Shown here: one piece after another, positions 19,691-20,911 of the stretch | How positions within the stretch are numbered: position 1 is the first letter of the stretch | How the letters are laid out: the number at the start of each line of letters is the position of its first letter | From: an uncultured bacterium | GTDB lineage: Bacteria > Babelota > Babeliae > Babelales > Vermiphilaceae | Direction: 5' to 3' | Length of the DNA stretch: 64,000 nucleotides | Assembly: GCA_963713925.1 (NCBI GenBank) | Contig: OY970212.1 | Coordinates: 768,001 to 832,000 of the forward strand | The notes under the pieces: generated by a model | Told to the model about the DNA's origin: nothing | Databases searched by the model: none | The model's input: the letters and a program-made list of their open reading frames with translations, nothing else | Made by a program: the position numbers and the translations under genes

Positions 19691-20911
19691 ATGAAAAAAA
19701 CAACTTTGATAGTATGCGTCGCGCTTCTCTCGACAATCCAATCAACTCGAGCCATGATTACCATCGCTCGAAGACACTACAGCATCAACAAACGTACCTT
19801 TGATCCGAATAGAAATAATGGGCACAATAACACATCCCGCTACCGTCCCTTACGAGCTCAACCCCCCATTGAAGGACCTTTGACCATCGAACAAATGGAA
19901 ACCATCCTGCGCTTCATGCCCATTGACCGAAAAAAACAAGTTGCTATTAAAACTATTATCGCCAAGACAAAAGCACTCAGCCAAAATAAGGATGAGGCTC
20001 TGTTTCGCCTACAAAGAATTTTCCAACTTCCTTGGGGACTTGTTAAAAAACCGACTATTAATATATCTTCCGCACAATCATTATTAAATAAAAAAATATT
20101 CGGAATGCACAAGGCAAAAGACAGCATTATGGATGAGTTTGCATTGCGTCATATGAACCCGGAAGGAAAAGGGAATACGATATGTTTTGTCGGACAGCCG
20201 GGGACAGGAAAAACGGCGCTTGCAGAAGTTATTGCCGATACGCTTGATCTTTCATATGGCCATGTTGCGCTCGCAGGATCATTTAACGGTGAAATCATTC
20301 GCGGCTCATTGAGTACATACAAAGATGCCGCTGAAGGAGAAATCACTAAAATCTTATCTTCATGTGAGATCTCAAATCCGGTGATTCTTCTTGATGAAAT
20401 CGATAAAACATCCAAGCAGGAACATGGAGCTCTACAATCTACTTTGTTGCAACTCCTTGATCCAACTCAAAATCACAATTTTTTTGACAACTATTTGGGT
20501 ATCCCAATCGATGTTTCAAAAGTGACTTTCATTGCCACTGCAAATTATCTTGAAAATATTTCTGAACCGCTCAAAAACAGATTGCATATCATTCAAGTGC
20601 CGGCGTATACATTGGAGGAAAAAATCACTATCGTAAAAGATTTTATACTGCCAAAACTGAACGAGCAAACAGGACTTCATAAAAACAAAATCCCGCTTGT
20701 TTTAAACGAAGATGTCATCAGGAACATTATTACGAACTACACCCAACAAGAACATGGCGTCAGACAGTTGGAAAAAATGGTTAAAACACTCTGTGCAAAA
20801 CAAGCAAGAGAATATCTCACTAACAAAAAGACCCTCACATTCACTAAAGAAAGTTTGGCTCAGTATCTCACCCCAATGCAAGAAGAAAATCTCAAGAAAA
20901 CGATCTGGTAG
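19691..20911 (+). CDS. Lon-type AAA+ ATPase module with a signal peptide, lacking the Lon N-domain and protease domain
   Basis: LPWG, FGMHKAKDSI, Walker A GQPGTGKT, EIIRG...TY, NPVILLDEIDK, LLDPTQNHNFFDNYL..PIDVSKVTFIATAN, PLKNRL, YTLEEK, GVRQLE. The protein ends at AQYL. Confidence 0.85.
   Translation: MKKTTLIVCVALLSTIQSTRAMITIARRHYSINKRTFDPNRNNGHNNTSRYRPLRAQPPIEGPLTIEQMETILRFMPIDRKKQVAIKTIIAKTKALSQNKDEALFRLQRIFQLPWGLVKKPTINISSAQSLLNKKIFGMHKAKDSIMDEFALRHMNPEGKGNTICFVGQPGTGKTALAEVIADTLDLSYGHVALAGSFNGEIIRGSLSTYKDAAEGEITKILSSCEISNPVILLDEIDKTSKQEHGALQSTLLQLLDPTQNHNFFDNYLGIPIDVSKVTFIATANYLENISEPLKNRLHIIQVPAYTLEEKITIVKDFILPKLNEQTGLHKNKIPLVLNEDVIRNIITNYTQQEHGVRQLEKMVKTLCAKQAREYLTNKKTLTFTKESLAQYLTPMQEENLKKTIW

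Follow-up and report, generated by a model that had tools for sequence, protein, structure and literature searches.

A protease-less Lon motor of a Babelota bacterium carries a predicted signal peptide followed by a presequence-like leader

Why would a bacterium place a Lon-type AAA+ motor without its protease behind a signal for export? The question is raised by a gene in the window, by which we mean the whole 64,000-nucleotide stretch analysed here, from a Babelota (Dependentiae) genome assembled as one 1.32-Mb contig (95.75% complete). An earlier note on this DNA had read the gene as an exported, protease-less Lon ATPase in which an Arg-rich, acid-free segment that starts with Met and contains RHYS follows the signal, and had proposed import into host mitochondria as an unfoldase or a dominant-negative subunit of host Lon. 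Overall, that reading is partly supported. The same open reading frame, encoding 406 aa, was recovered, Pfam showed no protease, and the signal-bearing architecture was confirmed. The features of the gene are as follows.

19691 to 20911, + strand: gene for a 406-aa signal-bearing, protease-less Lon AAA+ protein (ORF translation, Pfam, BLAST)
19691 to 19753, + strand: predicted Sec/SPI signal peptide, residues 1-21 (inspection and home-made heuristic; same design in relatives L167 and P0194)
19754 to 19870, + strand: Met-initiated basic leader, residues 22-60 (composition; structure model of low confidence, coil from residue 37)
19769 to 19783, + strand: RRHYS, an R-3-like candidate MPP/Icp55 site (motif definition from PMC7723863)
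19871 to 20035, + strand: three helices before the AAA+ domain, residues 61-115 (structure model, alignment)
20192 to 20215, + strand: Walker A, GQPGTGKT, residues 168-175 (alignment)
20315 to 20329, + strand: altered pore loop 1, TYKDA (alignment; Y-K-[SAD]-A in 5/5 subfamily members)
20384 to 20398, + strand: Walker B, ILLDE, residues 232-236 (alignment)
20669 to 20830, + strand: Lon lid domain with the sensor-2 Arg, residues 327-380 (Pfam, alignment)
20876 to 20911, + strand: short C-terminal tail ending IW, then a stop where the protease would be expected to start (alignment)

Pfam matched AAA at residues 164-301 (E 3.9e-20) and Lon_lid at 327-380; at E<=0.01, no model for the Lon N-domain or the Lon protease gave a match. 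The claim that the AAA+ module is intact holds for the ATPase motifs, all of which are present (sensor-1 N285, Arg finger R297 and sensor-2 R358 besides Walker A and B), but not for pore loop 1, which is altered, and the Lon N-domain is missing too. This loop reads RGSLSTYKDA, compared to RGHRRTYVGA in the genome's Lon; Y-K-D-A replaces the aromatic-hydrophobic-Gly Y-V/I-G-A of LonA, with the aromatic residue retained. The presence of a separate full-length lon, which the earlier note wished to see confirmed, was established twice over, as two are encoded elsewhere in the genome; BLAST against them aligned residues 107-395 only, at 39% identity to each. With 260 bits against a cut-off of 608, the protein falls below the TIGR00763 lon equivalog model. 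The AlphaFold2 model (pLDDT 81.8) is of low confidence over residues 1-60, where a helix runs up to residue 36; the part between residue 61 and about 395 is well folded. Foldseek with this model matched Lon structures, the best being LONP1 (E 2.9e-32, TM 0.68, 31% identity). Thus, the protein is a Lon AAA+ module that resembles that of LonA, but it is not a LonA: it shares with LonA and LONP1-Pim1 (TIGR00763) the AAA+ fold, Lon lid, Walker A/B, sensors and Arg finger, whereas it lacks their N-domain and Ser-Lys protease, has an altered pore loop and has gained a signal and a basic leader. A promoter and terminator scan gave results at chance level. A search of sequencing runs listed no RNA run with the sequence; one soil run, which may be the source sample, contained four short pieces identical to it, none of them over the gene.

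We considered that the gene might be the decaying remnant of a lon duplicate whose leader arose by chance, as the long branch in trees and the rarity of the subfamily in the phylum could suggest. The neighbouring recombinase gene bears on this point.

18710 to 19624, - strand: divergent xerD-like recombinase gene, a synteny marker shared with L167

On the metagenome contig L167, a xerD 55% identical to that of the window lies divergent from a Lon-AAA relative, in the same layout. This relative has a signal, a Met, an acid-free Arg leader ending QKRY, an AAA module with 38% identity to that of the 406-aa protein, and a tail ending YIW. Because a syntenic relative so divergent keeps the signal, leader, truncation point and tail, the gene does not appear to be decaying. 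Furthermore, the 406-codon frame is open, the catalytic residues are complete, and at columns invariant among 40 canonical Lons from fetched loci the protein keeps 61/88 residues, compared to 13/67 at variable columns. Substitutions at Lon-invariant positions occur around pore loop 2 and beyond Walker B. We regard decay as largely refuted and highly improbable.

Three further proteins, P0194, P0149 and P0156, are truncated at the same point and carry the YK[SAD]A loop and tails of a similar kind. Their AAA identities to the query are 38-44%; P0149 and P0156 have presequence-like first residues and no signal. The stop codon falls 11 residues past the AAA module, and the same end, with similar tails, is seen in the four relatives. 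A role for the tail in docking to ClpP was considered and dropped, as only 1/5 subfamily members ends in IGF. The pore-loop DNA pattern of the subfamily was found in 1/261 phylum genomes, namely the source genome, and in metagenomes at two loci, one of which (L166) encodes a protease-bearing protein; it was found in none of the genome contigs. When the four-member alignment was used for a profile search, partial Lons flooded the output and no new subfamily member emerged. Trees placed the 406-aa protein among long-branch signal-bearing paralogs, adjoining P0159, without resolving its position. A tree constrained to keep the five-member subfamily together had a log-likelihood 5.6 higher (p-AU 0.62), so that the grouping is neither rejected nor proven. 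Only BLAST scores point to the genome's first housekeeping Lon as the gene's origin.

We also surveyed Lon paralogs across the phylum. Lon matches were present in 151/151 genomes searched, and the 54 genomes with at least three were re-searched and 39 selected regions fetched. Extra signal-bearing Lon-derived genes recur, in protease-less, ankyrin-like plus AAA plus protease (the ankyrin-like label being given by inspection), and tandem-AAA forms. An acid-free, Arg-rich leader was seen in 7/22 protease-less but only 1/50 protease-bearing signal-bearing paralogs in a non-redundant set without N-domains; the p value of 7e-4 overstates this difference because some members of the set are kin, the taxonomy of some is unknown and one or more of the signals are false. 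Most signal-bearing Lon paralogs carry no such leader. We note that five loci (L041, L051, L052, L053 and L054) between them encode signal-bearing tandem-AAA Lon derivatives and, at L054, a cluster of four extra Lon paralogs beside the housekeeping lon, and that two adjoining signal-bearing genes for distant Lon-like AAA proteins lie at L059:3706-6780 (-).

The N terminus of the 406-aa protein consists of MKKTTLIVCVALLSTIQSTRA, then MITIARRHYSINKRTF. The first part was called a signal peptide by inspection and with a home-made heuristic; it has an MKK n-region, an h-region of about 11 residues and a polar c-region with a T-R-A end. The Arg-rich, Met-initiated leader with RHYS was found as the earlier note described it, acid-free up to the 17th residue of the predicted mature chain, which is the first acidic one; among residues 22-60 there are 7 Arg, 1 Lys and 1 Asp, and Glu is absent. 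In E. coli, positively charged residues early in the mature domain block Sec export (PMC5468347), and the seven Arg and one Lys depart from the rule of an Arg- and charge-poor early mature domain. This can be read in two ways, as a sign that the leader is under selection or as compatible with retention as a membrane anchor. In the latter case, the protein would be an ATPase of the bacterial inner membrane that is not exported, held by an uncleaved N-out/C-in anchor with the basic stretch as a positive-inside stop and working at the cytoplasmic face, where ATP is present, which would solve the ATP problem without a host. The short h-region, Lys-Lys n-region and polar c-region ending in Ala, however, are as in other signals of the genome, and Met stands at +1 of 41/507 strict signals against a background of 1.7%, a comparison in which the heuristic is biased. 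Together with the evidence given below, we consider such an anchor quite unlikely.

We investigated whether the leader is peculiar to this gene with a census of the genome, based on a home-made ORF caller and signal heuristic, which yielded 1263 genes, 665 of them signal-like and 507 by strict criteria. The class rule was an acid-free stretch of at least 15 residues with at least two Arg right after the signal. This applied to 13/41 proteins with signal plus Met, compared to 23/466 other signal proteins (p 6e-7), 54/478 signal-less N termini (p 8e-4) and 234/4836 internal Met positions (p 5e-8), where the rule thresholds and the motif below were fixed post hoc, after the sequences had been seen, and the heuristic is biased to cleavage before Met. 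The motif R-x(0-2)-[FY]-[ST] occurred in 6 of the 17 leaders selected by the rule against 1.7 in shuffles (p 0.005). With two likely false entries removed, one of them polytopic in the membrane and the other probably a shadow ORF, it occurred in 6/15, compared to 102/1434 internal acid-free Arg stretches (p 4e-4). Leader ends among the class members include RQFST, RAFYS, RRNYS, RLYSS and RLHFS; an anchor would not need such a motif. The two-part leader is thus no one-off: about 15 genes across the genome share it, with significant enrichment, a recurrence that the earlier note had proposed to look for in the proteome. A transmembrane (TM) helix after the signal was not detected in 8/15 members. 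Of the remaining seven, six have their first window of strong hydrophobicity starting 78-107 residues in, although weaker Gly-rich helices may precede it. Reading the leaders as membrane-flanking spacers does not account for this.

Presequences are described as high in Arg and low in acidic residues, with R-2/R-3 motifs and a typical length of 20-60 (PMC7723863), and the class leaders fit this description in Arg, acid content and an R-2/R-3-like motif. Other properties fit less well. The leaders are Leu-poor and Gln-rich, and cleavage at RRHYS would give a presequence of 9-10 residues, though the basic leader spans 39. The hydrophobic moment significantly exceeded that of shuffles in 0/19 leaders (lowest p 0.06), being 0.59 versus 0.55 in the 406-aa protein (p=0.42). 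This lack of significant amphipathicity speaks for a different reading, in which the protein is an effector acting in the host cytosol, nucleus or membranes and the basic leader, presequence-like only in looks, belongs to the secretome at large and might bind nucleic acids or membranes, mediate nuclear entry or serve as a secretion signal. The absence of the leader from most signal-bearing Lon paralogs points the same way, as do the signal-bearing AAA-Ulp1 proteins of Babela, for which a site of action in the amoeba cytoplasm is predicted (PMC4378268). Outside the source genome, no enrichment of the class was seen in 326 kb of G054 (2/43 signal-plus-Met proteins versus 9/119 others), in 400 kb of G144 (6/77 versus 5/62) or in 80 loci of other genomes totalling 1.44 Mb (8/149 versus 37/381). 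Basic acid-free mature N termini therefore appear to be common in the secretome of the phylum, and the 37/381 non-Met signal proteins with such starts add to the case for a generic feature. Single convincing leaders were present in these samples (RAYCS, RIFS, RQFRTS). In contrast, the motif is enriched in the class, and in the source genome the leader is restricted to Met-initiated chains. These points, and the nature of the proteins that carry it, lead us to rate an effector acting elsewhere in the host as rather unlikely. As a separate observation, Met right after the predicted cleavage site is very common in the G000, G054 and G144 samples (77/139 in G144), mostly as Met-Glu/Asp; such mature starts may mimic host N termini.

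The cargos behind the leaders comprise the Lon motor, an SPFH stomatin, a protein with a C-terminal J-domain, several small Gly-rich membrane proteins and others. Members of the class are located as follows.

21812 to 22099 of the window, + strand: second class member, 95 aa, with the leader MIAIGTRAAQRYCS, 900 bases downstream of the 406-aa gene
G000:C1:1213929-1214996 (L082) and L097:1381-2472: SPFH stomatin, second copy, behind a signal and leader; conserved in another family
G000:C1:1116781-1118370 and L231:7461-9880: J-domain proteins behind a signal and leader
G000:C1 61376, 347038, 347543, 598888, 599286, 609587, 911090 and 1209415: small proteins, 129-174 aa, with signal and leader, their C-terminal helices hydrophobic and mostly rich in Gly

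Of all class members, the stomatin shows the design most cleanly. The housekeeping copy starts with a TM helix, and the second copy, which has exchanged this anchor for the leader, has a signal and leader and no TM. Its ortholog in G054, from another family and 60% identical, retains the signal, the Met and the acid-free leader, with QQR..F immediately before the conserved domain; the motif sits at the domain junction in both stomatins, which would not be expected of a generic basic stretch. SLP-2 is a stomatin of the mitochondrial inner membrane, and that of Trypanosoma is described as having no TM segments (PMC8630662); by analogy, the architecture of the second copy resembles mitochondrial SLP-2. 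On the other hand, the stomatin leader occupies the place of the housekeeping copy's anchor, as retention in the bacterial inner membrane would predict. The J-domain proteins, of which L231 encodes two with leaders, are candidates for engaging mitochondrial Hsp70. That the cargos (Lon, stomatin, J-domain) have mitochondrial counterparts is a further point against a destination elsewhere in the host. Among the small membrane members, one had no match in the 260 other phylum genomes (1/261) and another had no match in the ESM Atlas. A signal-bearing M48 peptidase family (G000:C1:262990-263913, L169-L179), present in 12/261 phylum genomes, was tried as a class member and not counted, since 11 relatives have mixed leaders, often before a hydrophobic stretch; we presume that an Oma1-like role is possible for it.

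The lifestyle of the source organism, likely a parasite of protists, provides a context for these proteins. Four frames of the genome match the ATP/ADP-translocase family. It encodes genes of the T2SS/T4P type (two secretins, two T2SSE ATPases, GspF, GspG, pseudopilins and a prepilin peptidase), and no match to VirB4 (PF03135) or FHIPEP (PF00771), one marker family each for T4SS and T3SS, or to TatC was found in this 95.75%-complete genome. According to the available text of two reports, the described Babelota live as parasites inside protists, and T2SS is the sole secretion system detected in them (PMC4378268, PMC4776705). In Chromulinavorax, 44% of the proteins have signal peptides, and the bacterium reorganises the host mitochondrion, which expands and wraps it; the only candidate named for this remodelling in the available text is a distant mitofilin-like protein (PMC6561590).

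Taken together, these data suggest that the source bacterium likely ships leader-class proteins into host mitochondria, and mitochondrial targeting of some kind is, for the 406-aa protein, somewhat more probable than not. The particular reading that we favour, at a little under even chances, is that of a Lon-type motor exported and addressed to the mitochondrial matrix as an ATP-driven remodeller that does not degrade. Signal peptidase would cleave after Ala21 and expose the Met-initiated leader, T2SS or vesicles would release the mature protein into the host cytosol, and import through TOM/TIM23 would be followed by trimming by MPP/Icp55 near RRHY-S. It counts against this route that T2SS substrates, for which no sequence rule is known, are folded, whereas TOM/TIM import requires unfolded chains. 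In the matrix, the motor would oligomerise, and its re-tuned pore loop YK[SAD]A could serve to chaperone, unfold or hold particular matrix proteins, which would preserve or reshape the organelle that feeds ATP to a parasite with ATP/ADP translocases. Proteolytically inactive Lon promotes assembly of respiratory complexes and protects the membrane potential (PMC2173558); a non-degrading motor would therefore suit an ATP-importing parasite. The weak point of the remodeller is oligomerisation without the N-domain, as this domain is crucial to hexamerisation of LONP1 (PMC11230189).

With the same delivery, the protein might instead be a poison or modifier subunit that joins the rings of host Lon (LONP1/Pim1), contributing an ATPase and Arg finger with poor substrate grip and no protease, and so slows degradation. 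The Lon protease ring helps Lon oligomerise, and both domains that aid oligomerisation, this and the N-domain, are absent, which favours this reading. The retention of cis and trans catalytic residues alongside an altered pore loop 1 would fit as well, and so would the match of the fold to LONP1 in Foldseek, although that ranking is not a measure of affinity because the PDB has many LONP1 structures. Identity to human or yeast Lon, however, is only about 31%, and the substitutions at invariant positions noted above would be more likely to interfere with co-assembly. A prediction of a two-copy complex of residues 61-398 with ATP/Mg scored 0.00 and is evidence neither way. The unfoldase and dominant-negative roles offered by the earlier note could not be separated by this evidence. 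We favour the remodeller because the cis and trans catalytic residues are kept, the pore-loop change is conserved in the subfamily and the identity to eukaryotic Lon is so low, and we consider the poison subunit unlikely.

In a wider form, which we hold to be evenly balanced between true and false, some Babelota would use a two-step address in which removal of the Sec signal unmasks a Met-initiated presequence, and would thereby dispatch a dedicated set of about 15-20 proteins to the host mitochondrion, among them copies of their own proteostasis proteins with a new destination. The protease-less Lon, the TM-less stomatin and the J-domain proteins would then mimic LONP1, SLP-2 and Hsp70 co-chaperones. 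If so, the two-step address would be the missing machinery of mitochondrial remodelling by this phylum, effectors would reach an organelle with no type III or IV system involved, and a bacterium would have retargeted duplicated quality-control genes to the organelle that houses their homologs. The simple leader rule would single out specific proteins as candidate effectors of the matrix and inner membrane, and the 406-aa protein would be a natural protease-free Lon motor for the study of Lon's chaperone function.

Mitochondria-targeted bacterial effectors are known already; Ats-1 of Anaplasma is reportedly one with a cleavable presequence. Two sequential N-terminal addresses are also known, from complex plastids, where signal peptidase exposes the second part of a bipartite signal and transit peptide; there, the route is eukaryotic, from ER to plastid, whereas here it would lead from the bacterial envelope to the host mitochondrion. 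Among the Mce proteins of Coxiella, which are bacterial effectors addressed to host mitochondria (bioRxiv 10.1101/2020.05.28.121236), MceC is a small signal-bearing glycine-zipper protein of the inner membrane, like the small Gly-rich class members, but as described in the available text it has no classical presequence, unlike the present class with its Sec signal followed by a Met-initiated presequence-like leader. Effectors of the Coxiella and Anaplasma kind are delivered by type III or IV systems, as far as the available accounts go, whereas only T2SS/T4P genes were found here, and the present cargos differ from them in including duplicated quality-control proteins. Within the phylum, Babela massiliensis has AAA ATPase-Ulp1 fusions and ankyrin proteins (PMC4378268), again with a signal and AAA and with T2SS as the proposed exit; their AAA family is different, the predicted site is the host cytoplasm, and the available text of that report mentions neither a second targeting segment nor a Lon origin. 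Clusters of giant-virus (Nucleocytoviricota) proteins in the ESM Atlas consist of stand-alone Lon-type AAA plus lid, 391-436 aa in length; they are viral, and their likeness to the 406-aa protein is a lead from a feature score of 0.97-0.98, without alignment. We found no account of signal-plus-presequence leaders or of exported Lon paralogs in the phylum in mostly open literature, including the main texts of PMC4378268, PMC4776705 and PMC6561590, where the search did not use the name TM6. Signal-bearing Babela AAA proteins are thus known, and the signal-plus-presequence design is apparently new, in that we found no paper on it.

Other genes near the 406-aa gene were also inspected. Three tandem signal-bearing genes at 15540-18713 (-) of the window encode a short shared N-terminal motif that looks F-box-like by eye and has no Pfam match. 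The protein encoded at 20915-21682 (-) has a signal-like stretch and two HxT motifs, and gave no Pfam or PDB sequence match; we take the two HxT motifs to suggest a 2H phosphoesterase. At 22312-22485 (+) lies a 57-aa ORF, rich in Lys, Arg and Ala and histone-H1-like.
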